Assembly: GCA_964538435.1 (NCBI GenBank)
Contig: CAZIDX010000001.1
Span: forward strand, 139,304-203,303
DNA: 64,000 nucleotides
Origin: an uncultured Gammaproteobacteria bacterium
GTDB taxonomy: Bacteria; Patescibacteriota; Patescibacteriia; UBA9934; GWF2-40-263
Direction of reading: 5' to 3'
Part shown: in pieces, positions 1-63,734 of the stretch
How positions within the stretch are numbered: position 1 is the stretch's first letter
How the letters are laid out: each line of letters opens with the position of its first letter
Translations under genes and position numbers: made by a program
The notes under the pieces: generated by a model
The model's input: the letters and a program-made list of their open reading frames with translations, nothing else
The model's database searches: none
Told to the model about the DNA's origin: nothing

Positions 1-695
1 AGAACCCCAGGTCTCTTACTAAGAAGTTGGAGCGCGTAAAGAATCAAGTCACCAAAATCAAGCGAGTCATTCTCAAGCAAGATTGATTGATACGTATGAT
101 ACGCCCGCGCTAATTCATCGAGTCGCTTTATCTCTGCTGTCATCTCCTCAGAGGCCTGTGCAGCATCCAAATCTGCTCTCTGCTCTTCCACAAAGGCCAG
201 ATAGGCTTCAGGGTCCATGCCCATGTCCTTCAAGCGCGAGAAGTGAGTAAGCATTGAACGAATATACTTCGTAGGGTTACCAAGCGGCCTGTAATGATCA
301 AGCTCAAATCGATCAAAATTCTGTCTTGCCAAAAGCCAGGCATCAAGTTCGTTTGCAAGCTGAAAATCTGTTGGCAGACCAATCTCCACTCCAAACTCTC
401 TAAGCAGCCGCTCACAAAAAGAATGAAAGGTCGAGATCTGCAAATCAACGTACCCATAAGGCAAAAGCATATCCACCCGCTCCTCCATTTCTGCTGCCGC
501 CTTGTCTGTGAACGTTAAAGCAAGAATCTGCTCAGGCTTCACAAGCCCCTGATCAATAAGCCATGCAATCCTGCGTGTAACAACCATTGTCTTCCCTGTT
601 CCTGCACCAGCAACAATCATCAGCGGCCCTTCCTTGTGGACCACTGCATCTTTTTGCTCTTCATTGAGCATTTCAAGCAAATCTTGTGTATTCAT
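1..695 (-). CDS. UvrD/PcrA/Rep-family DNA helicase, N-terminal part. The start codon is at 695 and the 3' end runs off the window.
   Basis: Manual minus-strand translation starts MNTQDLLEMLNEEQKDAVVHKEGPLMIVAGAGTGKTMVVTRRIAWLI..., containing a Walker A motif GAGTGKT and an LALTFTDKAA motif typical of superfamily-1 UvrD helicases. The six-frame track lists only complete ORFs, so this one is absent from it. Confidence 0.75.
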   Translation of the reverse strand, partial: MNTQDLLEMLNEEQKDAVVHKEGPLMIVAGAGTGKTMVVTRRIAWLIDQGLVKPEQILALTFTDKAAAEMEERVDMLLPYGYVDLQISTFHSFCERLLREFGVEIGLPTDFQLANELDAWLLARQNFDRFELDHYRPLGNPTKYIRSMLTHFSRLKDMGMDPEAYLAFVEEQRADLDAAQASEEMTAEIKRLDELARAYHTYQSILLENDSLDFGDLILYALQLLSKRPGV

Positions 696-820
696 ATCGC
701 AACTATCATATCATATTTAAAAAGTGCTGATTGTTGTCAAAAAACAAGACAAAACCCTTGACAAAAGCTTAAAAACAAGGTAATCCTTAATGGCCGATTT
801 TGGCTGAAAGGAAGGTATCG

Positions 821-2161
821 ATGTCACACCAACCCCCCGCACGACAGGACCAATTCCTGGATGTGCAGATCGTCCTGGGTCAACACACGATCGACCAGGA
901 CACACGACGCGTTTCGATCCTGCTCAAGGTCGAGCCTGCGAACACACCTCGCAACACAGACCGCGCACTCGACTACCGAATGGTCATCGACCGATCCGGT
1001 TCCATGTCGAGCTCAATCGGCCATGCTCACATGTCCCGACTCGAGGCTGCCAAGACGGCTGTCTCCGCGCTCGTCCGCAACCTAGGCGCCATCGATCAGG
1101 CCATGCTCTGCAGCTTCGACGACAAGGGTCGAGTGGATGTCTCCCTGGACCGCATGACCTCTGCGCGAATCAACACGATGTTGCGCAGGCTCGCTTCCAT
1201 GGAGACGGGTAACAGTACAGAGATCTCCAGCGGCGTACGCCTGGCTCTTGCACCGCAGACGCACGACAAGGTCCCCACGCGCCTGATCCTCCTCACCGAC
1301 GGTCAGAGCCACCCGAACGTCCGCAGAGATCACCAGCGACTCCTCGAGCTCGCTGATCGTTCCCGTAAGCTCGGCATCCCCTGGCTCATCTACGGAACCG
1401 GTGTGGACTACGACTTCGAGCTGCTCCAGCAGCTCCAGGCTCGCATCGGCCACGGTTCGTTCTGCAAGCACGTTCTGGACATGACTGGCTTCGAAGCTCA
1501 CCTTCAAGGTGAGCTCGCATTCCATCGCGGAATCGCCATCGAGGGCCTCAAGATCAGCGGTCAGGCCAAGTTCGGCCAGATCACCAAGGTGCTTCACTTC
1601 TGCCCCAGTCAGCAGGAGCTGCCCAACCGCGACGAAACCGACCAGAACAAGCCCTTGCCGCGTGACTACTTCACCCGCGGTGAGTTCCACGATGCTATTG
1701 GCTGCCTCGATCACTTCCGTGGTCAGCAGCTTCTCATCGAGATGGAAGTTCCACGCGTTGGCTGTGGCGTCCTCGACCTCATCGAGTTCAAGCTCGAGGG
1801 TCGTCAGCTCTCACGTGGTCTCCTGCACTTCAGCGAGCGCGTCAGTGCACAGGTCACCGTCGCTGATGATTCCAGCCAGGTCTCCAGCTACAACCCTGAA
1901 GTCCTCCGGGTCTACCAGGAAATGTCAGCTGCCCGCGCTGCCAAGCGTGAGGAGTACGAACGTGCTGCCCAGCTCTACCAGGCAACCGGCAACATGAGAG
2001 CTGCCACCGACATGCAGACCTTGCACCAGATGTCAGTGGCTGGTCACGATCGCACTGGCCTCCACCGCGAGGCGCACACCATGACCGGCGGCTACACCTC
2101 CATGTGCTTCACCGAGGAGATCGGTGTTCTGCACAACCGCGACTCGGACAGCCAACCATGA
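821..2161 (+). CDS. von Willebrand factor type A (vWA) domain protein (G+C-rich cassette)
   Basis: MIDAS-like motif DRSGSMSS, then ...T..., then LLTDGQS. A GAAGG RBS sits 6 nt upstream of the ATG at 821; the ORF-track start at 800 is a TTG. Its stop overlaps the next start in the sequence ATGA at 2158-2161. Confidence 0.7.
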   Translation: MSHQPPARQDQFLDVQIVLGQHTIDQDTRRVSILLKVEPANTPRNTDRALDYRMVIDRSGSMSSSIGHAHMSRLEAAKTAVSALVRNLGAIDQAMLCSFDDKGRVDVSLDRMTSARINTMLRRLASMETGNSTEISSGVRLALAPQTHDKVPTRLILLTDGQSHPNVRRDHQRLLELADRSRKLGIPWLIYGTGVDYDFELLQQLQARIGHGSFCKHVLDMTGFEAHLQGELAFHRGIAIEGLKISGQAKFGQITKVLHFCPSQQELPNRDETDQNKPLPRDYFTRGEFHDAIGCLDHFRGQQLLIEMEVPRVGCGVLDLIEFKLEGRQLSRGLLHFSERVSAQVTVADDSSQVSSYNPEVLRVYQEMSAARAAKREEYERAAQLYQATGNMRAATDMQTLHQMSVAGHDRTGLHREAHTMTGGYTSMCFTEEIGVLHNRDSDSQP

Positions 2162-2760
2162 GTGCGCTCACCTGCCCGGAGTGTGGGACCACTTATCCCA
2201 AAGGCACCCCCATGTGTCTGGATGACGGCCACATCTTCGTCAAGACAGATGCAGGTCAACAGAGCGCTGAGCTTGCAGAGGAGCCTATCCAGCTGCCGGC
2301 CCCGCGCAACGGCAAGCTGGCAAGACTCGAGCCTGGACCGGGTCCCCAGTTCTACATCGATGTGACACATGTCGATGGAACGGACTTCCCGCCAGGAACA
2401 CATCTCCAGCACTTTCCCCTCGAGCATCTCACTCGGGGCGAGCTGCGCGTAGGACGACGCACCAGAGGAAAACGGACACCCTACCAGCCTGAGGTCGATT
2501 TCCTAGACCTCATTCGAGATCACGCACTGGGAGGTCATGTGATCATCTCTCGCCTGCAGGCCACCCTGCTCATGGACGAGAGTGTTCCAGCGATTCGGCA
2601 TCAGCCCGATCAGATCACGACCTGGATACGGCGCTCAGGATCACCTGACAACAGAGCCCTGCGACCAAACCAGGTCGCCAAGCTGCGCCAACGCGACGTC
2701 ATCACATTCGGAAAGCCAGCACTGCGCTACGTGCGCGTCCGTGTTTGGTGGGACGAATAG
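2158..2760 (+). CDS. Zinc-ribbon plus FHA (forkhead-associated) domain protein, translationally coupled to the vWA gene
   Basis: N-terminal CPECG...C ribbon. FHA-like region: GELRVGRR...EVDFLDL...VIISRLQATLLMDES...SGSPDNRALRPNQVAKLRQRDVITFGKPALRYV. The ATG overlaps the upstream stop. Confidence 0.6.
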   Translation: MSALTCPECGTTYPKGTPMCLDDGHIFVKTDAGQQSAELAEEPIQLPAPRNGKLARLEPGPGPQFYIDVTHVDGTDFPPGTHLQHFPLEHLTRGELRVGRRTRGKRTPYQPEVDFLDLIRDHALGGHVIISRLQATLLMDESVPAIRHQPDQITTWIRRSGSPDNRALRPNQVAKLRQRDVITFGKPALRYVRVRVWWDE

Positions 2761-2774
2761 ACGCACAACCCCGC

Positions 2775-2842
2775 ACTCGTTAGAGTCCGGGGTTTTCTAT
2801 TACGCAAATTGAAAACCGAGTCCTTTCAGACCCGGTCGTTTC
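2775..2842. terminator. Back-to-back hairpin terminators separating the convergent genes 2158..2760 and 2843..3577
   Basis: Hairpin aaccccg...cggggtt followed by TTTTCTATTACG (+ strand). Hairpin gaccgggtc...gactcggt followed by TTTTCAATTTG (read on the - strand). Confidence 0.55.
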
Positions 2843-3577
2843 TCAGTAGCCCAGACCGAGAGCATTCTCGATCAGAACATTATGTGAAGCCACGAATCGG
2901 CTTCCGATGTTGTCGCGCTCATCCTGAAGCGCGCGCATGAGACCTTCTTCCCGCAAGCAAGCAGGATTGGATTCGGCCAACGCACTCGCATGCATAAGCG
3001 CTCGCGCCCACTCCTCGAACTTCTCGTCCGTGGGGGCTACAGCCACGCTCAAGTAGCACTTGTACTGCCCAGGCCATTGCACACCCGCCAGTGGGAACTC
3101 ACCGCCAGCATCTGCATCCACACACGCCACGATCTCGTCCACGATGATCGGATCACGGATCTCCTCGTAGAGTTCACGGGTACCAGCGAGAGGACCACCT
3201 TCCGCAGCTTGACGCGTTCCACCGAACAGAGAGAATCGACCGCGACATTCCGGGTTGGGGTGCTTGTGATCCTTCTTCTGCAGCAGAACCGAGTCGAGTG
3301 ATGCGTTCGCGATCACGGTCACAGCTCCGAACAGCCCCATGCGCTCGAACCTCACGAGCATCCAGGACCGAATCGCAGCAGCGCGGTGTTCATTGATCGA
3401 GACACGATCCAGACGACCATTCACCTTGACAGACGCCAGCTGTCCGTTCAAGGACAGCAGAACCGCGTCATCAGCCTCAGGGATACCGAGAAGTCGGCGC
3501 ACCCAGGCGTCCTCACCCTCCTTGGCATGATCCGGGTGTCGCCCCGGAGTCAGCTCGATCGGACAACTCACCAGCAT
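2843..3577 (-). CDS. Hypothetical protein (G+C-rich, 244 aa), convergent with the vWA/FHA pair
   Basis: Complete ORF with an AGGAGG RBS 4 nt upstream. No motif I can assign. Confidence 0.5.
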   Translation of the reverse strand: MLVSCPIELTPGRHPDHAKEGEDAWVRRLLGIPEADDAVLLSLNGQLASVKVNGRLDRVSINEHRAAAIRSWMLVRFERMGLFGAVTVIANASLDSVLLQKKDHKHPNPECRGRFSLFGGTRQAAEGGPLAGTRELYEEIRDPIIVDEIVACVDADAGGEFPLAGVQWPGQYKCYLSVAVAPTDEKFEEWARALMHASALAESNPACLREEGLMRALQDERDNIGSRFVASHNVLIENALGLGY

Positions 3578-3660
3578 GGGACCTCCTTTGCTAGCGGAGC
3601 TAAAACTTAATAAACATTAGACATGATGTCAACCTTTAGGCTATACTTGTGTCTCCTCGC

Positions 3661-4263
3661 ATGGAAAAACATATGGAAAACAAAAAACTCGACTCAGTAG
3701 TCGATTTTCTATTCGAAACCGGAATGCTCGCTCACACCCCACGAAGCGGATTCTTTTTCCTGGGAAGCGGAGAGCAAAGCGTAGCAGAACACATCAACCG
3801 CGCATCGTTTGTAGGATACTGCCTCGCCCAACTCGCAGGAGACGTTGATGTAGGAAAGGTAGTACAACTCTGCCTGTTCCATGACGTATCAGAATCACGC
3901 ATCTCTGACCTCAACTACGTTCACCAGATGTACACAGAACGTCTAGAGGACAAGGCACATGAGGACCTTACTTCTTCCCTACCCTTTGGCGATCATATGA
4001 AGGGCCTAATTGACGAGTATGAAGATCGAGAAACAAAGGAATCAATTCTTGCCAAAGATGCAGACAACATTGAACTGATTCTTTCGCTCAAGGAGCAACT
4101 CGACATTGGCAACGAACGCGCCAAGACCTGGATTCCAAGCGCACTTGAACGACTCAAAAGCGAAGAAGCTAAAATGCTTGGAAAGCGAATCGTGGAGACC
4201 GACTCTGACCGCTGGTGGTTTGCAGACAAGACAGACGACTGGTGGGTCAACCGAAAGAAATAA
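3661..4263 (+). CDS. HD-superfamily phosphohydrolase, YfbR-like 5'-deoxynucleotidase family
   Basis: HD-family motifs: ...AEHINRAS..., then LFHDVSESRISD, then KDADNIELIL. The start is uncertain (GTG at 3649, or ATG at 3661 or 3673). It is followed by the bidirectional terminator aaaaaaccggccttgcggctggtttttt at 4265-4295. Confidence 0.65.
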   Translation: MEKHMENKKLDSVVDFLFETGMLAHTPRSGFFFLGSGEQSVAEHINRASFVGYCLAQLAGDVDVGKVVQLCLFHDVSESRISDLNYVHQMYTERLEDKAHEDLTSSLPFGDHMKGLIDEYEDRETKESILAKDADNIELILSLKEQLDIGNERAKTWIPSALERLKSEEAKMLGKRIVETDSDRWWFADKTDDWWVNRKK

Positions 4264-4292
4264 ACAAAAAAACCGGCCTTGCGGCTGGTTTT

Positions 4293-5189
4293 TTAATTAA
4301 GCTCCTTGTCAATTGCCTGCATGCTCTCAATGCGTTTTTCAATTTTTGTCTTGAATCCACTGAGTAAAATTGATGTTGCCTTAACAAGATTATCCTCACT
4401 TCCACCATCGGCTTCAATCTGATCTCTTTTTCCATAAAAAATTTCAGCTTGCCTATCTTTCAACCCAATGAAATCCAGTATCTGCTCACCACTCATCTCC
4501 TCTGAGTCCTCACCTACATCTTCTTTGCCTGCCAAGTGCTTCCAAATTTTCTCTTCAACGCTTGGGTCCAATAAAAATTCTGCTACCTCCTTTGTGTTCC
4601 TAAAAACTCGCGATTCATGCCTGAGGTTGCGATCGTATTGTTTCCTGAGCTCCTGCAATGTCAATACTTTGAATCCAAATGCTGTATCCTTGCGTCTTTG
4701 AAACGCTTGAGGATCCACCATGATTGATTTGTAAAAAAACTCAAATGGGTAATCAACCTTCACCGGCCCATCCGCCCCCTGCACCTCAACCTGCAAAACC
4801 CCACCAAGCCTTCTTACCTCTTCACCCTTGTACCGCTTATAACGCCCCTTGTTCGCAAATTTGACTCCAGGAATATTTCTCAAACGTCTCCTGATTTCAT
4901 TAAGAGAATCAAGGCTCTCAACAGCAACGTCTAGATCACCAGGAAAAACCTCTTTCAATGAATCAATATCCCTTTTCATGCCCTGCAAAAATCTAGCTGT
5001 GCTAGCAAACACAACATAATCAGGAATATCCTGAAGCGCATCACGAATCTGAGTGAGTGCTGTCTCCATTGCTTGTTGCTTAATCTCAATCGGAACATCA
5101 TCACTCTCAATATCAAGAGCCTCAGGCTGCGGCTCCTGCACCTCAGCTAATTTTGCTTGATCTAATTCAAAAGCACACATACTTCCCAA
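4293..5189 (-). CDS. Nucleotidyltransferase-fold (pol-beta superfamily-like) protein, function unknown
   Basis: VVFASTARFLQGMKRDIDS...GDLDVAV resembles the minimal NTase signature (G/S-x9-13-DxD). The rest is unrecognised. Confidence 0.35.
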   Translation of the reverse strand: MGSMCAFELDQAKLAEVQEPQPEALDIESDDVPIEIKQQAMETALTQIRDALQDIPDYVVFASTARFLQGMKRDIDSLKEVFPGDLDVAVESLDSLNEIRRRLRNIPGVKFANKGRYKRYKGEEVRRLGGVLQVEVQGADGPVKVDYPFEFFYKSIMVDPQAFQRRKDTAFGFKVLTLQELRKQYDRNLRHESRVFRNTKEVAEFLLDPSVEEKIWKHLAGKEDVGEDSEEMSGEQILDFIGLKDRQAEIFYGKRDQIEADGGSEDNLVKATSILLSGFKTKIEKRIESMQAIDKELN

Positions 5190-5275
5190 ATTGTATCACA
5201 AAACCGGCCTCTCGACCGGTTTCTTATAATCTCTATCCACCCCACAAGCAAGCTATCATCTCAAACCAGTTAGGA

Positions 5276-5357
5276 GGTAATGTGAGAATTTCACGAGGTG
5301 GTGGTCATCTATACTTCGAGATGGCCCGGCTCCGCCGAGTGAGATACTCGCATTACC
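5276..5357 (+). repeat. Hairpin-embedded conserved element, copy 1 (core 5296..5336)
   Basis: Core aggtggtggtcATctatacttcgagaTggcccggctccgcc sits inside the locus-specific inverted repeat ggtaatg...cattacc. The stem gtcAtct/agaTggc carries a compensatory change relative to copies 2-4. Confidence 0.7.
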
Positions 5358-5380
5358 TGCTAACTGGCGTCAATCTCAGC

Positions 5381-6022
5381 CTAGGCTTTTGCTTGCTCTG
5401 CCTCCTCAATCATATCTTTCACCTTCATAAGCGTGATAATGGTTCCACGCTCCTGCTCTGCAAGTTTGTTCTGAATGAACTTGATGGTTTCCTTCATCCG
5501 AGGGATGTACACATACTCTAGCGCATTCACACGCCGCCGAGTCTTCTCAATCTCCTCTGCAAGAAGCTTTGCGCTGTGCTCAACCTCTGCGAGCCTCACC
5601 ATGCTCTCAAGTGACTCTGAGAAATTCTGCAACGCAACATCAAGCTCTGAACTTGTAAAGCTGAATCCATACGAAAGAAAGTCACCTTCCTGTTTGTACT
5701 CAAACTGAGGCACCTCTACACTCATCACGTTCTTCACCTCTGCACTGAGGTATGTCTTCATGCTCGGCAAGAGGAACGCGCTCTTTAGCACAGATGGAGG
5801 TGTCTTAGCAGATGCAAACAAGAATGCACGAAACCCCACAGCAAGCTGATCTTCAACGGTTTCCCTGAGGGTCTTTGCTTCACGAATAATCTCCATGAAC
5901 TGTTTCATGAGACCATCACGCTTGTCCTTAAGTAGCTTATAACCTCGCTGAGAGGTCTTCAGCTTGCGCTTAAGAAGCAGCAATTCTTGTCGTGTTGGAT
6001 TGACTCCTAAGGCATTTGCCAT
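5381..6022 (-). CDS. atpD: A/V-type ATP synthase subunit D
   Basis: 213-aa coiled-coil protein at the end of the A-ATPase operon, with the typical size, position and heptad pattern. Confidence 0.75.
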   Translation of the reverse strand: MANALGVNPTRQELLLLKRKLKTSQRGYKLLKDKRDGLMKQFMEIIREAKTLRETVEDQLAVGFRAFLFASAKTPPSVLKSAFLLPSMKTYLSAEVKNVMSVEVPQFEYKQEGDFLSYGFSFTSSELDVALQNFSESLESMVRLAEVEHSAKLLAEEIEKTRRRVNALEYVYIPRMKETIKFIQNKLAEQERGTIITLMKVKDMIEEAEQAKA

Positions 6023-6027
6023 AAGGA

Positions 6028-7434
6028 TTATTCGTTATCTGACTTGTCTTCTTTCTTAGGAAGATACTTCTCAATATGATGCTCTTTGAGCCTCTTGAGC
6101 TCACGTTTTGGCAAGATAGTGAAAAGCTTCCAAGCGATTTCAAGAGTCTCTTCAATTGACCGATCATCATCCTTTCCTTGAGTGATAAACTCCTTTTCAA
6201 ACGCTTCAGCAAACTTGATGTATGCACGTTCAGCATCACTAAGAGCTGACTCACCAAGAATCACCGCAAGCTCACGAGCCTCTTTACCTGTCGCATATCC
6301 AGCAAAGAGCTGGTTAGCAACACCTGAGTGGTCATCACGTGTCTTTCCTTCTCCAATACCCTTTGACGCAAGTCGTGAAAGAGATGGAAGTGGATCAATA
6401 CATGGATAAATACCCTTTCGGTAAAGCTCTCGAGAAACAACCACCTGCCCCTCTGTAATGTAACCCGTAAGGTCAGGGATTGGGTGAGTCTTATCGTCTT
6501 CTGGCATGGTCAAGATCGGAATCTGTGTTACTGATCCTTTTCGTCCGCGAATCTTTCCTGCTCGTTCGTAGATAGTTGAAAGGTCCGTGTAGAGATATCC
6601 AGGATAACCACGTCGTCCAGGAATCTCCTTACGAGCCGCACCAACTTCTCGAAGTGCCTCACAGTAGTTGGTAAGGTCTGTCAAAATCACGAGTACATGC
6701 TTGCCTTTTTCAAACGCAAGGTACTCTGCTGTTGTGAGCGCCATTCGTGGAAGTGTGATTCGTTCAACCACTGGATCATCAGCTAGGTTGATAAAAAGCA
6801 CTGATCGCTCAATCGCCCCTGTTTTCTTGAACTCATTGATAAAAAACTCAGACTCCTCAAACGTCACACCCATCGCACCAAAAATCACACAGAAATCCTC
6901 ATCATCACCACCAGCATCAGAAACAACCTTTGCCTGACGCGCAATCTGCGCGGCAATCTCATTATGTGGAAGTCCAGCACCTGAGAAGAGTGGAAGTTTC
7001 TGTCCACGCACAAGTGTGTTAAGCCCATCAATGGTTGAAATACCAGTCTGGTAAAAGTCCTCTGGAAGCTCACGTGAGTACGGGTTGATTGGAGCACCGT
7101 TGATATCCAAATACTTCTCTGGAATCACAGCAGGCATACCATCCTTTGGATCAGCCACTCCTGAGAACACTCGTCCAAGCATGTCTGTTGACACACCGAT
7201 CTGAAGTGTCTTCCCAAGGAATGTTGCTGTTGCATTGTCCACGTCAATCCCTGATGTTCCCTCAAACATCTGCACAACCGCGTGCTTGTCTGTGATCTCA
7301 AGAACACGACCTCGTCGCTTTTCTCCATCACCAAGCTCCACCTCTACAATTTCTTCGTACATGACATCTGTAATGCCATCCACGATCACAAGTGGTCCCT
7401 GGACCTCCTTGATTGTCTTGTATCGTTTTTCCAT
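6028..7434 (-). CDS. atpB: A/V-type ATP synthase subunit B (non-catalytic)
   Basis: 468 aa with characteristic B-subunit sequence (...[38 protein letters not shown]...) and no canonical P-loop. Confidence 0.9.
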
Positions 7435-14198: not shown

Positions 14199-14239
14199 GA
14201 TACCACTTAAGGTCCGATCGGCACTTAAATGGTATCAAT
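14199..14239. repeat. Palindromic site, left: GATACCACTTAAG-gtCCGATCGGcac-CTTAAATGGTATCAAT
   Basis: Two 13-nt arms (gataccacttaag / cttaaatggtatc; the arms differ at one position, c vs a) around a central CCGATCGG palindrome. The stop codon of gene 14235..14768 lies inside the right arm. Confidence 0.7.
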
Positions 14240-14768
14240 GTCTTTTTGCTGTATACACACGGACCCAATCTTGATTTCCAACACCTTCAAAGAATTGTGA
14301 CAATGCATCTCCTGCATCAAACCTCGATACCCATACACTTCTCTGAATACAGAAAAAACCAGCCTCCTTAAGAAATTCACGTATATTTTTTCGTAAACCT
14401 CTTTTTGATTCTGGAATATCGAAAACCACCACACAATCTTCTTCTTCGGACAATTCTTCAGCAGCACAAATCTCGAGCTTGAGAGCCTCCAGTCTCCCTA
14501 GATCAGTTAAAGTTATTTCATACTTATCGGCAATTTTATTAATCTTAACCATCTTCTTTTTCTCAAGCCTTCTTAGCTCCCGTCTCTGCAGTTGTTTTTC
14601 TCTTGCATTTCGTATTTCAATCGCACCCTCCAAGCCGTACCTAAAAGCCAATCCTGGCTGATGAAGGTTTTCAAACAATAAATCTGTCGAATGATTGAGT
14701 TGCATCAAAATATCTGATGCTCTTGAAAGATATTGAATTCTTCTTTTTGTTTCTTTGTTAGAGGTCAT
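14235..14768 (-). CDS. Small regulator-like protein with a PaaX/Cas2-fold-like C-terminal half
   Basis: CVVVFDIPESKRGLRKNIREFLKEAGFFCIQRSVWVSRFD resembles the Cas2/PaaX-C beta-alpha-beta core. The N-terminal ~90 aa may be a wHTH. The gene is flanked exactly by the palindromic repeats. Confidence 0.35.
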   Translation of the reverse strand: MTSNKETKRRIQYLSRASDILMQLNHSTDLLFENLHQPGLAFRYGLEGAIEIRNAREKQLQRRELRRLEKKKMVKINKIADKYEITLTDLGRLEALKLEICAAEELSEEEDCVVVFDIPESKRGLRKNIREFLKEAGFFCIQRSVWVSRFDAGDALSQFFEGVGNQDWVRVYTAKRH

Positions 14769-14975: not shown

Positions 14976-16013
14976 CTAGTTGTCTTCGTTTTCCGACTCC
15001 GAGTAGAATCCGGTCACGAAGTTGGCCTGGAACCAATCAGGGTCTGATCGGTCACGACCCAATTCGAGCTCCTCAACGCATCGATAGAGCATCTCGCCGA
15101 AGTCAATGTCCGGCTGGCCGCTACCCGATTTCCCGTCGCGGTAGAGGTTAGCATACACCTTCCACTGTTCGAGTCGGTCTGCACCTTGCTGAGCCAGCGC
15201 AGGACTGCGGTTACGCGACCAGCGAACTGCGACCAGCAGATCCTGATACAAACGCCTCCACCGAGGTGTACGAAGCACGGCTTTTGCGCGGTCCGTGATG
15301 GCGCGTTTGCGAACCGGCGGAGCCGTCCCAGCAACGTGATCATCACCGTCACCGTGCCTGCGCGAACCAGGCTTTCTTTCCGGCTCCGGCTTCGGCTTCG
15401 GCTCAGGTTCGGGCTCCGGCTCCGGTTTCGGTTTCGGTTTCGGCTCCGGCTCCGGTTTCGGCTCGGGCTCCGGCACAGGTTCGGGCTCCGGCTCAGGTTC
15501 GGGCTCGTCAGACACCACCTTTCTGTCTCTCACCGAACTCAGATCCAGACCTTCGAAAAGATCTACCCGCTTGACCGGCTCGGCATCGTGCATCATGTCC
15601 GCGTCAGTGCCACCAAACGGATCATCTACTTCCTCGTCTGAACCATCACCGTCTCCGGCCTCTGGCTCATCCTTACTCTCTTCGTCGGGTGGTTCTGTCG
15701 GCTCAGGTTCGGGCTCCGGCTCCGGTTTCGGCTCCGGTTCCTCCTCTTCTTCACCCTCCTGCTCAGCCGCACGCAACTTCCCCCACAAATCAATACGGGG
15801 GTCATCTGCATGAGCCTTGATGTACTCGGCCGGATTGTCGTGGAAATCCATGGACTCGTTCCATGCCTCCGCAACACCCAATGCCTCAGCCATGTCCTCA
15901 CCGTCGATCCCATCCTCGTCATCGAGATAGGTGTCGACATGCTCCTCAGTAGCAATGTCGGGATCATCCCCAAACAAAGCCTGAAGGGCATCTTCGAAGC
16001 TGTATTCGGCCAT
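14976..16013 (-). CDS. Highly acidic Pro/Glu/Lys-repeat protein (G+C-rich cassette)
   Basis: Long PEPEPEPEP / [19 protein letters not shown] tracts, an Asp/Glu-rich N-terminus and a basic Arg/Trp-containing C-terminus. GGAGGG RBS before the ATG at 16013; a hairpin terminator lies downstream at ~14895-14945. Confidence 0.6.
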
Positions 16014-16178
16014 TGGGCCCTCCGTTGTGTGTGGTTTGACAGCCAAAATCGTCATCAAGGACGACTTGGGCAACCGTGCAAGATAACACAAATTGACCCT
16101 TTTGTCAACAAAATGAGACAAGATTTGCTTGTTATCTTACTAAATGTTGTTAACTCTCAACATATATGCCAATCACGG

Positions 16179-16207
16179 TTGACAAAATCTCCATTTTCTG
16201 GTATTCT
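16179..16207 (+). promoter_or_regulatory. Near-consensus sigma70-type promoter for gene 16359..18098
   Basis: TTGACA (16179-16184), 17-nt spacer, TATTCT (16202-16207). Confidence 0.5.
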
Positions 16208-16358
16208 GCGCCTCTGGCACTAACATGCCCAAGTCGTCCTTTTTACCAAAAACAGTCTTGGCAAAAGTGTCTTTATAGACATTTCTGCCGAGACTGTTTC
16301 CCAACCCTCAATCAGCGTGTCTCTCGGAGCGCTGCACCCGACCCTAAGGAGGTCAAAC

Positions 16359-18098
16359 ATGGCAACTCAGAACCCACTCGTTCGCGACTCCAGCACCGGG
16401 CGTTTCATCGCCATCGTCGACGACATCGTCCTGCTCATGGCTCATCAGGAACCCGACTTCAATCGCAACCGCGGCAAGGCCATCAAGCGTGTTCGTGCGC
16501 GCATGATCATGGACCCCAAGAACGACAAGCTGCCGATCCGCGACGAGGTCGACTTCCGTCCGGTCCCGGGCGCGAACGCCTCCGGCTTCACCATCTCCTT
16601 CAACGAGAAGGGCATCCCCTTCGTAGACCCCTGCAAGACCATGGGTCTGCGCGCCGAGGCCATGCTGCCCGGCAAGGACGGCAACCTCGTGGAGACCTCG
16701 GTCCGCCCCGCCTTCGTGTGCGACGGCCTGTCCGGGTTCATCCCGTACGTGCAGCGCATCAAGGCCAAGGATGCCCAGGGTGAGCCCGGCACCGACGGCT
16801 ACAAGCCGGCCGTGCACACCTGGACCTCCACCGGCAAGATGCCCTGCATCTTCTTCCAGCCCCCGATCAAGAAGGGCAAGAAGGCCCCGCCGCCCGTGGC
16901 CGTTCCCCTGGGCCTGGCGCGTCCGTTCCTACTGGATGCCTGGAAGACCCTGGTCGAGCACCCGGATCGCCAGCACGCCACCCGCAAGCTCTTCGTGATC
17001 GAGCCGATCGCGAACAACCTGCGTGGCAACAAGCGCCACCTGGTCTTCACCCCGCGCGGCAACCCCTACACCCCGGTGTGGTACAACAAGAGCGCGGACA
17101 AGCTCCGCGATGCGCTCAAGCGCAAGCTCAACGGCGAAGCCAACGTGGTCATCCCCAGCCCGGATGGTCAGGTCCTGACCCACCTCTTCGGTAAGGTCGT
17201 GACCCCGATCACGCACAAGACCGAGACCCCGGTCGAGTACGACCTGCCCGGTGGCAAGACCGGCTGCGTCCCCTGCGTGTTCCGCATCCAGGAGCAGAGC
17301 GGTGTGGTCAAGGCCATCTACAAGGGTGAGAAGCGCCACATGGGCAACCTGGTCGCACAGGACCTGAGCTTGGACGACCTCGAGTTCAACGCGCTCACGG
17401 CCCTGGGCCTGACCATGGAGACGGCCATGACCGGCCGTGCTCTGCGCAAGCTCAAGAACAAGCTCCTGCGCGGCCCCCAGGACCAGACCAACCCCCTGTA
17501 CATGCAGGCGGTCGAGTCCTCGGGTCTCGAGCCCGGCCACCACAAGGCACAGGCCAGTGGCCCCATGCGCTTCATCGCTGACTCCGCGGTCGAGCAGGTC
17601 GAGACTCAGCTCAACGAGGAGATCAACCTGATCGCCGGCAAGCTGATCATGCCCGGTCACCGCGACAAGCCCGAACTGGTGACGCTCCTCGGCGAACTGG
17701 ACGGCACCAAGCTTCGCGAGGCCGCGTTCCAGCGCGAGGGTGCCTGCATCCTGGCCACCTGGGTCGCCAAGACCCAGAACTGGGACGAGTTCAGCTGGGG
17801 CTCCGAGCTGCACCGCCGCGTGCGCTACAAGGTCCTCATGAGCCTGGCCAAGGCCGCCGACCTCAAGATGGCCCCCAAGCCCAAGCCCAAGCCCGCCCCG
17901 GAGCCCACCAACGGTTCCGGCTCCGCGGATCAGGGCTCCGAGGGTGGCTCCAACACGCCCAAGGACGGTGGCAATCAGAAGGCCGCCAGCGACTCCGAGG
18001 CCCCGGCCGAGGAGACCCCTCGCGAGCGCAAGAACCGTCTCGCCCGCGAGCGCCGCGCCAAGGCCAAGGCCAAGAAGCTGGCCGAAGAGAGTGCTTAG
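16359..18098 (+). CDS. Hypothetical 580-aa protein with a Lys/Ala/Glu-rich disordered C-terminal tail (G+C-rich cassette)
   Basis: AGGAGG RBS 6 nt before the ATG at 16359. No recognisable catalytic motif. The C-terminus ...KPKPKPAPEP...RERKNRLARERRAKAKAKKLAEESA suggests nucleic-acid or polyanion binding. Confidence 0.55.
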   Translation: MATQNPLVRDSSTGRFIAIVDDIVLLMAHQEPDFNRNRGKAIKRVRARMIMDPKNDKLPIRDEVDFRPVPGANASGFTISFNEKGIPFVDPCKTMGLRAEAMLPGKDGNLVETSVRPAFVCDGLSGFIPYVQRIKAKDAQGEPGTDGYKPAVHTWTSTGKMPCIFFQPPIKKGKKAPPPVAVPLGLARPFLLDAWKTLVEHPDRQHATRKLFVIEPIANNLRGNKRHLVFTPRGNPYTPVWYNKSADKLRDALKRKLNGEANVVIPSPDGQVLTHLFGKVVTPITHKTETPVEYDLPGGKTGCVPCVFRIQEQSGVVKAIYKGEKRHMGNLVAQDLSLDDLEFNALTALGLTMETAMTGRALRKLKNKLLRGPQDQTNPLYMQAVESSGLEPGHHKAQASGPMRFIADSAVEQVETQLNEEINLIAGKLIMPGHRDKPELVTLLGELDGTKLREAAFQREGACILATWVAKTQNWDEFSWGSELHRRVRYKVLMSLAKAADLKMAPKPKPKPAPEPTNGSGSADQGSEGGSNTPKDGGNQKAASDSEAPAEETPRERKNRLARERRAKAKAKKLAEESA

Positions 18099-18356
18099 CC
18101 CAGCGCCTAGCGCGCTACACCACCGACACCAAATCGGTGACGAAAGGCCCGGTGAGGACCTGGAAGACGAACGTGTCTCCCAGGCCCTCCCGGCGCCTTT
18201 TCTATTTCCCAACCAAAACCACACACACAACCGCAACCACAAGCACAAACACAAGCACAACCCCCATGGAGATGGCGACCTAAGGGGCTCAACGCCCCGC
18301 CAGGTCGCAGCCCCCACTACCCCACCTATAGGCCCAGGACGCCAAACGGCCGTTCG

Positions 18357-18447
18357 AGGTGTTGTGAGAAAAATCACGAGGTGGTGGTCGTCTATCCTGC
18401 GAGACGGCCCGGCTCCGCCTCGTTATTTTTCTCACAACACCTCGTGG
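18357..18447 (+). repeat. Hairpin-embedded conserved element, copy 2 (core 18379..18419)
   Basis: The core is flanked by the perfect inverted repeat gtgttgtgagaaaaat / atttttctcacaacac and by cacgagg / cctcgtg. Confidence 0.75.
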
Positions 18448-18555
18448 CCACCCCAAGCCCCCATAGAAAGATCCGAGCAAGGTTCAAGCAAAGGCGCAAC
18501 CAATTAAAAGGAAAGGAAACAAAAAGAAAAAACCGGCACAGAGCCGGTCTTATTG

Positions 18556-29182: not shown

Positions 29183-30034
29183 ATGACAGCCAAAAAACTT
29201 CTCATCACAAAAGGAAACGGGCAGGTTGTTCCATTTGAAAAAAACAAACTTGCCGCAACCCTTCAACGTGCTGGAACCGACAAAAAAACCATCCAGGAAG
29301 TGCTTCGCGTAATTCAACCGAAAATCAAGCACAAGATGAAAACCTCGCAAATTGCTCAGATGGTTCATTTCGAGCTTGAGCAGCGCAAACCCTGGGCAGC
29401 AGCCAGACTCAATCTTCGTGACGCCATCCGCAACCTTGGTCCAGCTGGATACAACTTTGAAAAATACGTCGCCTCAATCCTCAATGCATACGGTTACAAA
29501 GCCGAGACTCCGCACGAACTCCAGGGCGCCTGCGTAAAACACGAGGTAGACGTTACAGCAGAAAAAGACGGACGCACAGCCTTTATCGAAGCAAAGTTCC
29601 GCCACGATTTCCGCGGAACAGTCGCTGTCAAAGACACACTTGCCACCTGGGCGCGCTTCCTTGATCTCGTAGACGGCTCAAACGTTGGTCTCTGCCAGCA
29701 CTTTGACGAAGCCTGGATCGTCACCAATGCACGCTTTACTGATCAATCTCTCAAATACGGACACTGCAAAAACATGATGCTTATCGGCTGGAACCACCCC
29801 CGAGAGCGCACCTTTGCCAGCATGGTTGATCAGCAAACCCTCTACCCTATTACCGTCATGAAAGACCTCACAAAGAAAGAGATAGAAGCACTAGCAAAAG
29901 CCGACCTCATGCTCTGTCGCGACCTAGAAAGCTTTGATCTTGACCAACTCCGCAGCAAAACCGGTCTTTCTGCCAAACGAATGGATCAAATCGCCCACAC
30001 CTGCTCAGACATTATTCACGGCGACAGAGGTTGA
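29183..30034 (+). CDS. ATP-cone domain fused to a PD-(D/E)xK (Mrr-like restriction-endonuclease fold) domain
   Basis: N-terminus LLITKGNGQVVPFEKNKLAATLQRAG is ATP-cone-like. The core HEVDVTAEKDGRTAFIEAKF matches a D...E-x-K nuclease motif. Confidence 0.5.
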   Translation: MTAKKLLITKGNGQVVPFEKNKLAATLQRAGTDKKTIQEVLRVIQPKIKHKMKTSQIAQMVHFELEQRKPWAAARLNLRDAIRNLGPAGYNFEKYVASILNAYGYKAETPHELQGACVKHEVDVTAEKDGRTAFIEAKFRHDFRGTVAVKDTLATWARFLDLVDGSNVGLCQHFDEAWIVTNARFTDQSLKYGHCKNMMLIGWNHPRERTFASMVDQQTLYPITVMKDLTKKEIEALAKADLMLCRDLESFDLDQLRSKTGLSAKRMDQIAHTCSDIIHGDRG

Positions 30035-33946: not shown

Positions 33947-35041
33947 ATGATGTCTGGAGAATTCAACCAACATGGTGGTCTCACACTCGTTGGACTGCGC
34001 GGGTACGAGGCTCTCATCAACACCGTCAAGGACCTCATCGAAACCAAGAGTGGCAACGATGGAGGGAAGACCCCACACACCCCCGTGGACATCGTCCGCC
34101 CCGAGATCAAGCGCTTCGCAAACGGCGAACCTGATGTCCGCCTGCGCAAGCAACATGTCGGTGGTCATGACATCGTCGTAGTGACCTCGGGTCCTGGCAC
34201 AAACGACATGATCATGGAAACACTCTGGGTACTCAACCACCTGGCAGCACATCGCGCATCGCGCATCATGCTGGTGACTGGGTATTTTCCACTCAGCCGA
34301 TCCGACAAGGACGAAGCTGAGGTGCGTCTGACCACTCCACCCATGGTGATCAACTGGTTCAAGATGGCTTCCATGCACCCCAATGGTAAGGACTGCCTAC
34401 TCTGTCGTGTGGTCTGTGCTGACCCGCACAGCGTCCAGCTCACTATGGCCGGAGACTCTGGGTTCATCACCCCGATCTTCTTGACCCGGCGCCTGCTTCG
34501 CCCCACCATTACGGACGCTCTCGAGCAGAACAAGCGCATTGCCCTGGCATTCCCAGACAACAGCGCTGTCGCTCGATTCGAGCCCGCCATTCTCAAGGTG
34601 CAGAAGTCCCTGGACATCGAAATTCCCATCGTGGTCGCAATCAAGCGGCGAGACATGCTCACAGGCAAGTCCACGCTCGTGGGAATGCAAGGAGACCTGG
34701 AGAATCTCGAGGGATCTCTGGTTATCATGTGCGACGACGAGATCGACACCGGTGGCAGCATCATGAACATGGCCACGCTTCTCAGGGACATGTACAAGGT
34801 CGACTCCGTGTGGGCCGCTGTCATTCATGCCGTGTTCAGCGACCCGGCTCCACAACGCTTCATGTTCGCGGACTCACCCGTGGATCGCGTTCTTGCTATG
34901 AACACGATCCCGCACAACAACCGTTCCGAGATCGCCCCTCTGATCGAGTGTGGACGACTGAACATGTATCCCTGGCTCGAAGATCTGGCCTGGTTGATTC
35001 TCATGCACCACTGGAAGGTGGGCATGCGAGAAGCCCGCTAG
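33947..35041 (+). CDS. Divergent ribose-phosphate pyrophosphokinase (PRPP synthetase, Prs) homologue in a G+C-rich cassette
   Basis: SGPGTNDMIMETLWVLNHLAAHRASRIMLVTGYFPLSRSDK aligns with E. coli Prs [42 protein letters not shown]. The C-terminal PRPP-binding loop LVIMCDDEIDTGGS is present. GGAG RBS. The terminator ends GGTTTTCTCATAATTTG. Confidence 0.6.
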   Translation: MMSGEFNQHGGLTLVGLRGYEALINTVKDLIETKSGNDGGKTPHTPVDIVRPEIKRFANGEPDVRLRKQHVGGHDIVVVTSGPGTNDMIMETLWVLNHLAAHRASRIMLVTGYFPLSRSDKDEAEVRLTTPPMVINWFKMASMHPNGKDCLLCRVVCADPHSVQLTMAGDSGFITPIFLTRRLLRPTITDALEQNKRIALAFPDNSAVARFEPAILKVQKSLDIEIPIVVAIKRRDMLTGKSTLVGMQGDLENLEGSLVIMCDDEIDTGGSIMNMATLLRDMYKVDSVWAAVIHAVFSDPAPQRFMFADSPVDRVLAMNTIPHNNRSEIAPLIECGRLNMYPWLEDLAWLILMHHWKVGMREAR

Positions 35042-36296: not shown

Positions 36297-36743
36297 CTAC
36301 TCAAAATCAATCGCGCTTACCAAACTTCCTTTTTCAACCTCATCAAAAACATGTTGGTAATAATCAATAAAATCATGCGGATAATCATCTACCGAACACC
36401 ACACAAGCTCACTACACTTCTCAGGCTCAGTATTTTGTGGCTCCCCCTCCCAATCTGAGCAATGAAAGAAGCAATCAATCCGCTCATGATCTCCACAATG
36501 CCGATGCAGCACATGCTTGCAATCAAGATGCTCAACTTTAACTTTTACACCAACCTCCTCCATAGCCTCGCGCTGCATCGCGCGAAAGACACTCTCCCCA
36601 CCATCAACATGCCCAGCTGGAAGTCCAAGCTCGTTATCTTTGTACCCTGTGTTCTGCCTCCGTAGAGCCAAAAACCGCCCCTGATCATCAATCATGATCA
36701 AGTAGACTGAAACGATCATTTTGTACTTATCTTTCCAGCTCAT
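36297..36743 (-). CDS. Nudix hydrolase
   Basis: Nudix box GHVDGGESVFRAMQREAMEEVGV. Confidence 0.8.
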   Translation of the reverse strand: MSWKDKYKMIVSVYLIMIDDQGRFLALRRQNTGYKDNELGLPAGHVDGGESVFRAMQREAMEEVGVKVKVEHLDCKHVLHRHCGDHERIDCFFHCSDWEGEPQNTEPEKCSELVWCSVDDYPHDFIDYYQHVFDEVEKGSLVSAIDFE

Positions 36744-39806: not shown

Positions 39807-40004
39807 AAAAGTTCACATTAATCTCAATGTTCCAATGGTATACCATTTGCCAAGCCAATTCTACTAGCCCTCATGTCTATCTGCCAAAAAGCTAAGAAAT
39901 AAACATTTCTTAAAAGAGAAGACACACCCCCGAAGAGGTGTGTCCGTCTGGCGTAGAGCCAGCTTGCCCGCCATAGCTCGTCAGAGCGACGGTGGGTCGC
40001 GTTG

Positions 40005-40919
40005 CTAGGCCGCGGTCGCCTGCTGACCAGCGCGTCGCTTGGCCTCGGCAGCAGTGCGTGCGAGCGCGTCATCGAGAGAACGCTCGGCCTTACGCTTACT
40101 TGCTCGGTCCTCCTCGAACTCCTCGGCCATGCTGTCGAGCTTGGCCTTGAGCTCATCCATCCGGCCTTCATCCACGCTGCTCGCGAAGATGCCGGCCAGG
40201 ATGTAGTCCAGGAACGCTGGCGTGCTACGAATCTGCGCGACCCGCTGCTCGTACTTGGCCTTCACAGCCTCGTACTCGGCACGGATCTTGACCGCGTATT
40301 CCGAATCGTCTCCTTCGTACCGCTTCACGATCTTACTCAGCTCGTGCACGGCCACTGCCAGCTTTGCTTCGTCCTCAATGTAGGACGGGAGGCAGGTGCC
40401 CACGAGCCACTCGATGCGGTCACTGATCGAACCAGCTACCATCCCGGCCTCGGGTGCGGCCTTGCGAATCTGCTCGATACCGCGACGCACAGCACCACGA
40501 ACCGAGAGCATACGCAGCCGGCGAAGCGGGGCGAACTTGAGCGAGAGCCATTTCCAGCCACGCTTGAGCAGTCCACCGGTTCCCTGCAGCGCAGCCTGAG
40601 CCGTGAAGCTCAGCACGATGACCACGAGGCCTTGTAGGAAGCTGATCAGGTCCATCCCCCACACACCGACCCCGAAGAGAATCGCAGTGATCGCGTAGAA
40701 CACGGTGGAGTAGATCCAGCCGTAGCCAGAGAACACACCGTCAGGCAGCTTGGTCTCTCCCTTGTTCTTGAGGAACAACTGAGTCGACTCGTGCACCTGC
40801 TTGATGTTGCGGAACATGAACACGGCGCCCATGAACGTTGTCAGGCCCATGAGCCCGAGGTAGAGCATGGTCTGCGTGAACGTAACCATATGCGAGAGGA
40901 AAGTGATGGTAATGTCCAT
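40005..40919 (-). CDS. 3-TM membrane protein with a long cytoplasmic coiled-coil tail (G+C-rich cassette), divergent from the PNP-like gene
   Basis: GGAGGG RBS before the ATG at 40919. Three N-terminal hydrophobic helices, then a charged Ala/Glu/Lys/Arg-rich helical C-terminus. Confidence 0.55.
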   Translation of the reverse strand: MDITITFLSHMVTFTQTMLYLGLMGLTTFMGAVFMFRNIKQVHESTQLFLKNKGETKLPDGVFSGYGWIYSTVFYAITAILFGVGVWGMDLISFLQGLVVIVLSFTAQAALQGTGGLLKRGWKWLSLKFAPLRRLRMLSVRGAVRRGIEQIRKAAPEAGMVAGSISDRIEWLVGTCLPSYIEDEAKLAVAVHELSKIVKRYEGDDSEYAVKIRAEYEAVKAKYEQRVAQIRSTPAFLDYILAGIFASSVDEGRMDELKAKLDSMAEEFEEDRASKRKAERSLDDALARTAAEAKRRAGQQATAA

Positions 40920-40967
40920 CTGATGCCCTCCACGGCTTGTTGTTTCAGGAAGCTTGGAAACAAGAAA

Positions 40968-40992
40968 AACTACCATAAAACGGTAGTTTTGT
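40968..40992. promoter_or_regulatory. Perfect 9-bp-arm palindrome aaaactacc-ataaaac-ggtagtttt inside the divergent promoter region
   Basis: Lies between the putative -35 (TTGACA) and -10 (TAGTTT) of the minus-strand gene 40005..40919, so it is operator-like. Confidence 0.4.
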
Positions 40993-41056
40993 CAAGCAAT
41001 AAGTATGATATTTTACCAATAATCCGCCAATTCTAAAGAAAACTGACATTTTGAAG

Positions 41057-41084
41057 TTGACACTCCATCAAAAACCGCTAGAAT
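41057..41084 (+). promoter_or_regulatory. Near-consensus promoter for the PNP-like gene
   Basis: TTGACA (41057-41062), 16-nt spacer, TAGAAT (41079-41084). Confidence 0.5.
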
Positions 41085-41121
41085 GCCCATCTGCCCAAAC
41101 CAAGACAGGAGGTCTTCGCGC

Positions 41122-42027: not shown

Positions 42028-42093
42028 TCGGTAGGGTTTTCTATTTCAAACAAACAGAAAACCGCCCAGACTTACGTCAAAGGCGGCGCGTAG

Positions 42094-42738
42094 CTACCAG
42101 GCCCTGTTGAACGTTCCCGTTGCAAACAGTGGCAGCTCTTCGATGTGTTCATCTAATGTGTTCAAAGGATCGTACACCCCGTCCAAAATCCACAGATCCA
42201 TGATCTGAGCCCGAACGTTTGTTGACCCAAAGTACTCCCAGTCCTCTCCTGCCTCTGCTCTGCGCACATCCCCGATCATAAGGATATCGCGAAACAGCGG
42301 CGGTGGCGATTGCATGGAACCCACGAAGGTTCCATTCTCGCACCAGAAGTGACCTCCGTTGAACGTGAAAAAGTGATCATCGGTCATGCTCGATTCGTAG
42401 GAGTCGAACACTCCTTCAGCATCGAGAAACAACTCGTCATCATCGACACGTAGGAGCAACATGCTCTCGATCTCGATCTCTGGCTCAACATCGAGCCAAC
42501 CGCTCACAGAACCATCAAAGAGTTCTGGATCGGTTGTGGTGATGAAGATCACGCGGTCAGAGTACTCAATGTCTTCACCCTGAAAGGCATCGAAAAAGCT
42601 CGTATGACACTCGGTCTGAAGCACGTCCTCAGCAAGCTCCTTGTCAACAGGCTGCACAACGCAACCCACCAACAGAAGCAGAAGACTACATCGCACGACT
42701 AAACTTCCCATGGGCATGACGTGACATCGTGGCCACAT
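42094..42738 (-). CDS. Lipoprotein, paralogue A (G+C-rich cassette)
   Basis: Signal peptide with lipobox LLLLVGC. Paralogous to 42686..43297 (shared ...EDWEYFGS.../...EEFWVAYDED... and ...WILDGVYD.../...WLLDGEYS... blocks). The start is uncertain (ATG at 42711-42738). Confidence 0.5.
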   Translation of the reverse strand: MWPRCHVMPMGSLVVRCSLLLLLVGCVVQPVDKELAEDVLQTECHTSFFDAFQGEDIEYSDRVIFITTTDPELFDGSVSGWLDVEPEIEIESMLLLRVDDDELFLDAEGVFDSYESSMTDDHFFTFNGGHFWCENGTFVGSMQSPPPLFRDILMIGDVRRAEAGEDWEYFGSTNVRAQIMDLWILDGVYDPLNTLDEHIEELPLFATGTFNRAW

Positions 42739-53191: not shown

Positions 53192-53217
53192 CAACGGATC
53201 TCCGTTGCTTTTCTTTT

Positions 53218-63710: not shown

Positions 63711-63734
63711 GAGGTTCTCAGGGGTTCGGGGTTG

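Follow-up and report, generated by a model that had tools for sequence, protein, structure and literature searches.

A probable ArnAB counterpart in the Patescibacteria

We propose that two overlapping genes near one end of a 64,000-nucleotide (nt) stretch of DNA from an uncultured member of the Patescibacteria (contig CAZIDX010000001.1, positions 139,304 to 203,303 of the forward strand; referred to here as the window) are probably a bacterial counterpart, if a distant one, of the archaeal ArnB-ArnA regulatory pair within the Patescibacteria or candidate phyla radiation (CPR). The first gene (821-2161, + strand) is an open reading frame (ORF) that begins with the ATG at 821 and encodes a protein of 446 amino acids (aa) with a von Willebrand factor A (vWA) domain. 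The second (2158-2760, + strand) begins with the ATG at 2158 and encodes a 200-aa protein in which a zinc ribbon precedes a forkhead-associated (FHA) domain, hereafter ZnR-FHA. In the Sulfolobales, ArnA and ArnB form a loose complex that phosphorylation converts into a tight one, and they control motility, pili and DNA-damage genes; to our knowledge the pair has been studied to date only in that order. Public records name the members of the window family "hypothetical protein" and we found no paper on a bacterial vWA plus zinc-ribbon-FHA pair of such a type in the literature that we searched. On this reading the two genes are a previously unannotated bacterial module of the ArnAB kind. A conserved counterpart in the Patescibacteria would give the ArnAB module a bacterial branch, would add a compact phospho-switch of two proteins to the very few regulators that these organisms have, and would offer a testable lead on the control of an AddA-like repair enzyme.

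The vWA protein and ArnB

The vWA assignment had been made in an initial annotation of this stretch from its sequence alone and it passes Pfam profile searches (VWA_2, 2.3e-12; VWA, 3e-10). The domain spans aa 51-236 (nt 971-1528, + strand, as for all features of the pair given below) and carries the residues of a MIDAS, an adhesion site that depends on a metal ion (D57-x-S59-x-S61, T133, D160). Positions D57, S59, S61, T133 and T159-D160 are unchanged in all of the homologues aligned (7-12), which indicates an intact MIDAS site. In ArnB and its paralogue ArnE, the vWA domain is inserted into an eight-stranded beta-sandwich, the first two strands of which are N-terminal, and a four-helix bundle follows. 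The AlphaFold2 (AF2) model of the window protein has the same order of secondary structure, with two predicted N-terminal strands (aa 13-39, nt 857-937), the vWA domain, six predicted beta-sandwich strands (aa 238-346, nt 1532-1858), a predicted four-helix bundle (aa 359-421, nt 1895-2083) and a disordered tail rich in Thr and Ser (nt 2084-2158), and it matches the published tripartite ArnB/vWA2 fold at the level of topology only. An extension of ~300 aa with no known function had initially been described C-terminal to the vWA domain. This region measures about 210 aa and, from AlphaFold and Foldseek, is predicted with low confidence to comprise the strands and helical bundle of the ArnB topology.

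The best structural matches of both window proteins in the PDB are to ArnA and ArnB, which are represented there by the ArnA FHA domain (5A8I), the ArnB paralogue vWA2/ArnE (5A8J) and an ArnA-ArnB co-crystal from Sulfolobus acidocaldarius (8S05). With the vWA model as query, Foldseek placed ArnB first (8s05_A, 2.1e-11) and ArnE/vWA2 second (5a8j, 1.1e-9) over ~420 columns, followed by Sec23/24, ITIH and pilus adhesins, which likewise combine a vWA domain with a beta-sandwich; plain vWA domains reached only ~1e-3 to 1e-4. The sequence profile of the vWA family, searched against solved structures, gave 8s05_A as its second-best match (2.5e-7) and also matched 5a8j (2.3e-4). In addition, a tail motif of the form R-x3-T-x6-S-x3-T (R416-x3-T420...S427...T431) is kept across 12 divergent vWA homologues. 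The window protein thus resembles ArnB in its length of ~400 aa, in the MIDAS of its vWA domain, in having both a beta-sandwich and a bundle of four helices, and in its Thr-rich sites near the C-terminus, and it is phosphorylated threonines in the C-terminal region of ArnB that are bound by ArnA.

The ZnR-FHA protein and ArnA

The window ZnR-FHA protein alone has no match in Pfam even at E<=1 and none in NCBIfam or PADLOC, and its identity is apparent through its family. A profile made from the window protein and its two closest relatives was run against 1.84 billion representative proteins and recovered 45, of which ~35 are 150-215 aa long and have the same layout. Pfam FHA (PF00498) is matched by 20 of these 35 relatives (best 4.5e-9) and zinc-ribbon families by 5-10 of them. 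The zinc ribbon (C6-x2-C9...C20-x2-D23, nt 2167-2238) is N-terminal and is followed by a low-complexity linker and then the FHA domain (~aa 62-198, nt 2341-2751), in which R100, S131-R132 and T155 occupy phospho-binding positions. In the alignment of 35 sequences, S131, R132 and D180 never vary and G99, P111, T155, G161, G185 and R195 hardly do; the position that follows G99 has R100 as its consensus.

When the 35-member profile was compared with the PDB, ArnA came first (5a8i, 6.7e-5; the zinc-finger and the FHA core aligned as separate stretches) and 8s05_C second (1.8e-4). In the HMMER alignment the SR of the family corresponds to S146-R147 of ArnA and its TW to T167. The phospho-recognition residues of ArnA (R132, S146, R147 and T167) have equivalents in the family, and the zinc finger or ribbon with a C-terminal FHA domain is the layout of an ArnA-type partner. 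Foldseek searches with the model of the window protein also gave the ArnA FHA domain as the top match, and nearly all of the next 35 were FHA domains. The original ZnR-FHA call was thus right by way of the family, although the window protein cannot show it by itself, because relatives match PF00498 and because profile and fold matches agree.

Several points weigh against a relationship to ArnAB. The window proteins are only ~13-17% identical to ArnA and ArnB, and they are bacterial rather than crenarchaeal. The ArnB_C signature (InterPro IPR040929) is absent at E<=1 from the window vWA protein and seven homologues, and the modeled C-terminal region of the vWA protein aligns to ArnB at the fold level only. 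Both AF2 models were made from three-sequence alignments and are of low confidence, with a mean predicted local distance difference test (pLDDT) score of 54 for vWA and 52 for ZnR-FHA, and the Foldseek TM-scores are just 0.3-0.4 (~0.3 for vWA). In the library of 1.84 billion proteins, archaeal ArnA was beyond the reach of the family profile, and the window FHA protein does not match Pfam FHA by itself and has a Gln where the histidine of the SRxH motif usually sits. In the clade of the window the fourth zinc ligand is Asp (D23) rather than Cys, an exchange that is common to many other ZnR-FHA members. No kinase is linked to the pair in any locus. Lastly, Patescibacteria have no archaellum to regulate, so the regulated target must differ. 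The window family also departs from ArnAB in its conserved AddA-like neighbourhood, its unusually fast evolution and its high G+C content at third codon positions (GC3).

Occurrence and coupling of the pair

The family is very rare, as full-length relatives in a search of 5.8 billion proteins numbered two for vWA and two for ZnR-FHA. From contig look-ups and collection scans we assembled 15 distinct loci that contain the pair, all of which, where the record is named, are from Patescibacteria, including Candidatus Uhrbacteria. The scaffold MELI01000021.1 (L008/L014, 'Candidatus Aquicultor primus') was left out because its vWA gene is cut by a run of N that joins unrelated sequence. In that scaffold an addA/vWA fragment from Patescibacteria is fused to unrelated genes, and it is probably chimeric or mis-binned.

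In 15 of 15 loci, including that of the most distant family member (P0060), the vWA gene is directly upstream of the ZnR-FHA gene on the same strand, an adjacency that is shared with the arn genes of Sulfolobus acidocaldarius and Saccharolobus islandicus. In the window the two genes overlap in ATGA (read as ...CAACC-ATGA-GTGCG...), with the ATG at 2158-2160 and the vWA stop TGA at 2159-2161. Across the loci the spacing is tight: six have an overlap of 4 nt and three one of 1 nt, and in the others a gap of 1 to 15 nt separates the genes. In the partial locus L020 the ZnR-FHA gene overlaps a truncated upstream ORF by 8 nt. To judge from gene order and spacing, the two genes are co-transcribed and almost certainly coupled in translation in every lineage examined. 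Both the ATGA overlap and the tight coupling of the vWA and FHA genes had been noted initially, and the latter now extends to 15 independent loci.

Some public gene calls at these loci are in error. The record GCA_900089805 (L003, 11421-12788, - strand) shows, in place of the vWA gene, a pair of antisense shadow ORFs (237 and 172 aa), and in L002 (2095-2697) an internal ATG was taken as the start of the ZnR-FHA gene (P0015, 182 aa), with loss of the zinc ribbon; both errors fall in G+C-rich DNA. In a metagenome-assembled genome of a Patescibacteria member (L006, 9950-11263) the vWA frame is split into ORFs of 173 and 211 aa, which could reflect a frameshift or pseudogene or an assembly error.

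A possible phosphothreonine switch

By analogy with the Sulfolobales system, in which the zinc finger of ArnA docks on the beta-sandwich and helical domain of ArnB, the vWA and ZnR-FHA proteins would be made together and would form a complex. In the first, loose form of this complex the FHA protein may be held, through its zinc ribbon, on the vWA protein at the beta-sandwich/helical part. A Ser/Thr kinase encoded in trans, unlinked to the pair, would phosphorylate the conserved threonines T400, T420 and T431 in the bundle and tail, and the FHA domain (R100, S131, R132, T155) would clamp the phosphothreonine to give a tight complex. Such a tight complex would change the partners open to the MIDAS face and to the zinc ribbon, and a PP2C-type phosphatase would reset the switch. 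The support for a phosphorylation-dependent complex is circumstantial and consists of the conserved Thr and Ser residues of the tail, PP2C_2 genes in one locus, and a small kinase in the window.

ArnAB has the kinase and phosphatase partners ArnC, ArnD and PP2A, whereas the window cassette encodes neither a kinase nor a phosphatase, as was recognized from the outset. A regular expression for Hanks-kinase motifs found none in the window or in any of the loci, and it missed an atypical kinase that was found by Pfam. This small eukaryotic-type or RIO-like protein kinase (53920-54915, + strand, 331 aa; G-loop GNGKDG, CIK, HGDIALRN, DFG) matches Pkinase at 1.3e-10 (41.5 bits, cut-off 31.7) and RIO1 at 32.8 bits. 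It has HGD in place of HRD and lacks a long C-lobe, and Ser/Thr kinases are among its PDB matches. It is the sole kinase detected within the window and may be a candidate for a trans-acting kinase of the pair. The only pair locus with a linked phosphatase is L019, where the genes for two large PP2C_2-like proteins (540 and 864 aa; 2265-6581) immediately precede a distant version of the pair and share its strand; their PP2C_2 scores are 30.5 bits, which is above the cut-off, and 20.9 bits, which is below it.

The AddA neighbourhood and the output of the pair

The gene upstream of the pair in the window is divergent from it and encodes an AddA-like helicase-nuclease, of which the N-terminal part lies in the window (1-695, - strand; 74-93% identity to its orthologues). 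The full-length orthologues in L001, L003 and L027 have UvrD-helicase, UvrD_C and PDDEXK_1 domains. The pair is divergently adjacent to such a gene (UvrD helicase plus PD-(D/E)XK) in 10 loci and in two partial ones. The intergenic region between addA and vWA contains an element, TTGTTGTC-A5/6-CAAGACAA (731-752), that is nearly unchanged in the window, L003, L002 and L009 and that stands beside heavily diverged coding DNA; it is a possible operator.

These observations raise the alternative that the pair assists or regulates the AddA-like enzyme encoded next to it, and acts not as a general signalling switch but as a module for DNA damage or recombination. We regard this as fairly unlikely as a replacement for the ArnAB interpretation, with which it overlaps in that it proposes an output for the pair. 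The divergent adjacency extends over deep divergence (73-93% identity for the AddA N-terminus, 33-59% for vWA), the intergenic element is conserved, and ArnA and ArnB of Saccharolobus repress DNA-damage-response genes. The nearest vWA proteins on plasmids are those of four Deinococcus plasmids, and in three of these a MerR-vWA pair is beside or near AddB/AddA-type genes. On the other hand, the pair is away from AddA in L017/L018, L019 and L029/L030, and the addA-DciA-mreBCD block around the pair is itself syntenic, such that the adjacency may be a matter of inherited gene order alone. The Deinococcus vWA proteins, moreover, align over the vWA domain only. With the pair taken as an ArnAB counterpart, a DNA-damage- or recombination-related response is our leading guess for its output, one that is weakly suggested by the addA neighbourhood, the conserved intergenic element and the role of ArnA and ArnB in Saccharolobus.

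A more far-reaching version of this idea, and one that we consider improbable, is that no ArnAB-type module has been met in bacteria before this one, and that the pair is a phosphothreonine switch of great age, passed down vertically in the Patescibacteria and wired to an AddA-like double-strand-break helicase-nuclease. If this were the case, the switch might, for example, gate recombination, DNA uptake or a damage response in these reduced episymbionts. Common ancestry with the Arn system of archaea, or an exchange with it, would be conceivable, and the persistently high GC3 and tenfold-raised protein divergence described below would represent a lineage-specific retuning of the partner interface.

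The Deinococcus plasmids just mentioned (L023, NC_012529.1; L024, NZ_CP034187.1; L026, NZ_CP026518.1) encode a MerR-family regulator together with a vWA protein of 418-420 aa, and the neighbouring genes are AddB-like (PD-(D/E)XK) and AddA-like (UvrD). The arrangement is a parallel to that of the window family in which the vWA domain alone aligns. These proteins were rejected as homologues of the module, as hhalign shows only the vWA domain to be common to both.

Divergence and codon composition

Downstream of the pair, a third gene (2843-3577, - strand, 244 aa) converges on it, and the three genes, the coordinates of which agree with the ORF list, form a block referred to here as the cassette. 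The block is G+C-rich, as the initial annotation had observed: the G+C content of 821-3577 is 0.598, compared with 0.475 for the remainder of the window, and it climbs from ~0.47 to 0.57-0.62 between ~750 and ~3500. Against the nearest relative of the window, L003, the flanking proteins are 93-99% identical and an HD-domain protein (see below) is 81% identical, compared with 59% for vWA, 43% for ZnR-FHA and 67% for the 244-aa protein, and vWA identity among the AddA-linked loci is 33-59%. The synonymous divergence (dS) of the vWA gene is 0.96 and its ratio of nonsynonymous to synonymous divergence (dN/dS) is 0.36. The dS of the ZnR-FHA gene and of the 244-aa gene is near saturation, with dN/dS of 0.30 and 0.145, respectively. 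In the flanks dS is 0.98 for AddA and 0.63-0.90 for V-ATPase genes, with dN/dS of 0.02-0.05 throughout. From these values the cassette is under purifying selection, with protein-level evolution estimated to be ~7-10 times faster than that of the flanks, and it appears to be as old as its surroundings because vWA and the flanks have equal dS. AddA and vWA rank the loci in an identical order of divergence, which fits vertical descent, and these sequence comparisons are consistent with vertical inheritance of the pair in ultra-small Patescibacteria.

The GC3 of the cassette in the window is 0.64-0.75, compared with 0.40-0.46 elsewhere. The high GC3 of the pair recurs in the orthologues of eight of 10 lineages, and across local genes GC3 rises together with dN/dS. 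High G+C is here the mark of a class of fast-evolving genes rather than of recent import. Recent horizontal acquisition as the cause of the G+C-rich island was rejected, given the agreement of vWA dS with the flanks and the recurrence of high GC3. In addition, scans of the window for tRNAs and with Rfam gave no matches, and hence there is no integration-site signal. Further G+C-rich islands (0.55-0.66 vs. ~0.45) are at 15000-18500, 34000-35000, 40000-42500, 53000-54000 and 63000-64000. They hold a PRPP-synthetase-like gene and the genes of four unknown proteins: two of 381 and 593 aa, one of 323 aa that neighbours a PNP_UDP_1 phosphorylase, and one of 228 aa that is secreted. The genome is thus compositionally mosaic and the vWA/FHA block is not unique in its composition.

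Another alternative is an anti-phage or inter-bacterial conflict system in the form of a fast-evolving, vWA-centred defence cassette, and the initial annotation had linked the pair to vWA-FHA ternary signalling and conflict systems and had viewed the block as a self-contained cassette. For such a system speak the protein identities of 43-67% vs. 93-99% in the flanks, the dN/dS of 0.30-0.36, the island itself, and the participation of vWA and FHA proteins in MoxR-vWA threat sensing. The ternary conflict systems of Kaur, Burroughs, Iyer and Aravind (2020) are of the MoxR-vWA-VMAP type, and the actinobacterial Esr threat-sensing pathway (2026 preprint) needs a MoxR, a kinase and a sensor; its output proteins have an FHA domain, in some cases in fusion with zinc fingers. 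The window locus resembles these in having a vWA protein alongside phospho-signalling parts, but it lacks the MoxR AAA+ ATPase, VMAP/iSTAND, a linked kinase and a beta-propeller sensor, as well as any toxin or nuclease effector. MoxR is absent from all 15 pair loci, and the neighbours in the window are AddA-like, Nudix, HD and V-ATPase genes. The architecture is constant in the 15 loci and effector domains that vary are absent. The locus occupies a fixed syntenic position and is not mobile, the dS of vWA is that of the flanks, and dN/dS is well under 1. PADLOC-DB 2.0 at E<=1 has no match for the three cassette proteins and nothing relevant among the five proteins scanned, and NCBIfam likewise has none for the three. 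Searches by tblastn gave no match in phages with the ZnR-FHA and 244-aa queries, and in plasmids the vWA query found only the generic vWA proteins of Deinococcus. A defence or conflict role is accordingly very improbable and was rejected for want of PADLOC matches and of phage or plasmid relatives beyond generic vWA domains, and with it goes the view of the block as a mobile or conflict island.

The adjacent Nudix gene

The initial annotation saw no recognizable domain in the 244-aa protein and considered it as the unknown third component of a non-canonical sensor/effector or defence module. From its sequence, this protein is a divergent Nudix hydrolase. It scores 17.9 bits with Pfam NUDIX (PF00293), which is under the cut-off of 21.1 bits, but all five members of its family match PF00293 (best 1.2e-8). 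Its Nudix box (aa 120-142, nt 3152-3220, - strand) reads G120-x5-E126-x7-R134-E135-L-Y-E138-E139, and residues G120, E126, R134, E135, E138 and E139 are invariant across the family alignment. The protein therefore has the catalytic G-x5-E-x7-R-E-U-x-E-E of the superfamily and differs from it in that the terminal G-U of the box GX5EX7REUXEEXGU is R-D. The ~85 N-terminal and ~90 C-terminal aa are lineage-specific and have no detectable relatives. The two best PDB matches of the family profile are Nudix enzymes that align on the box, at scores that are not significant.

With the third gene so identified, a three-gene sensor-effector module of vWA, ZnR-FHA and Nudix, in which the Nudix enzyme is the effector or third partner, is quite unlikely. 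The Nudix family has five members in the search of 5.8 billion proteins, the window protein and four relatives, and every known homologue is at a pair locus, that is, next to the pair in five closely related genomes (the window, L002, L003, L004 and L009). It also has the high GC3 of the cassette (0.60-0.79) and a dN/dS that is raised over that of the flanks. Nevertheless, vWA and ZnR-FHA occur together in all 15 loci and the Nudix gene accompanies them only in those five closest relatives. It is missing beside the pair in all of the more distant lineages (L006, L007, L012, L013, L015, L017, L019, L027 and L029), where hydrogenase-like, F-ATPase, DUF389, HrcA or unknown genes lie downstream. 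The Nudix gene is convergent with the pair and outside of its operon, and the pair has a dN/dS about twice as high. In the window, L003 and L004 the Nudix gene is arranged divergently with a gene for an HD-domain nucleotidase. Hence the Nudix gene is probably a neighbour rather than a component of the ArnAB-like module, and most likely an independent nucleotide-housekeeping gene that is paired with the HD nucleotidase. A false lead is thereby removed, as the block is not a defence island and its "unknown" gene encodes a Nudix hydrolase. A second Nudix hydrolase in the window is canonical (36297-36743, - strand, 148 aa).

Regulatory signals and other genes of the window

A promoter-like site precedes the vWA/ZnR-FHA operon (758-786, + strand), with a -35 TTGACA at 758-763, a 17-nt spacer and TAATCC, or alternatively GGTAAT at 779-784, as the -10. 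The perfect TTGACA and the GTAAT are kept in four related genomes, and a consensus promoter scan skipped the site because of its weak -10. A Shine-Dalgarno-like AAAGGAAGG is located at 808-816, before the vWA ATG. Between the convergent ZnR-FHA and Nudix genes is a spacer of 82 bp, in keeping with the convergent layout first described, and within it a hairpin (2814-2837) that is a possible weak terminator shared by both. This is the only hairpin that speaks for the terminators initially ascribed to the block, and in positions 1-5500 nine terminator-like sites were observed vs. 4.7 +/- 2.4 in shuffled sequences, a modest excess.

The HD-domain gene (3649-4263, + strand) is of the HD_3/YfbR-like 5'-deoxynucleotidase family (Pfam HD_3, 3.3e-25) and is divergent from the Nudix gene, and its orthologue adjoins the Nudix gene in L003 and L004. 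Between it and the V-ATPase D gene is an A+T-rich ORF (4293-5189, - strand, 298 aa) with no family match. L003 has no such ORF, and the HD and V-ATPase D genes adjoin each other there. Elsewhere, the window encodes a PaaX_M/Cas2-like protein of 177 aa (14235-14768, - strand) and a protein in which an ATP-cone is combined with an Mrr_cat restriction-endonuclease-like domain (29183-30034, + strand).

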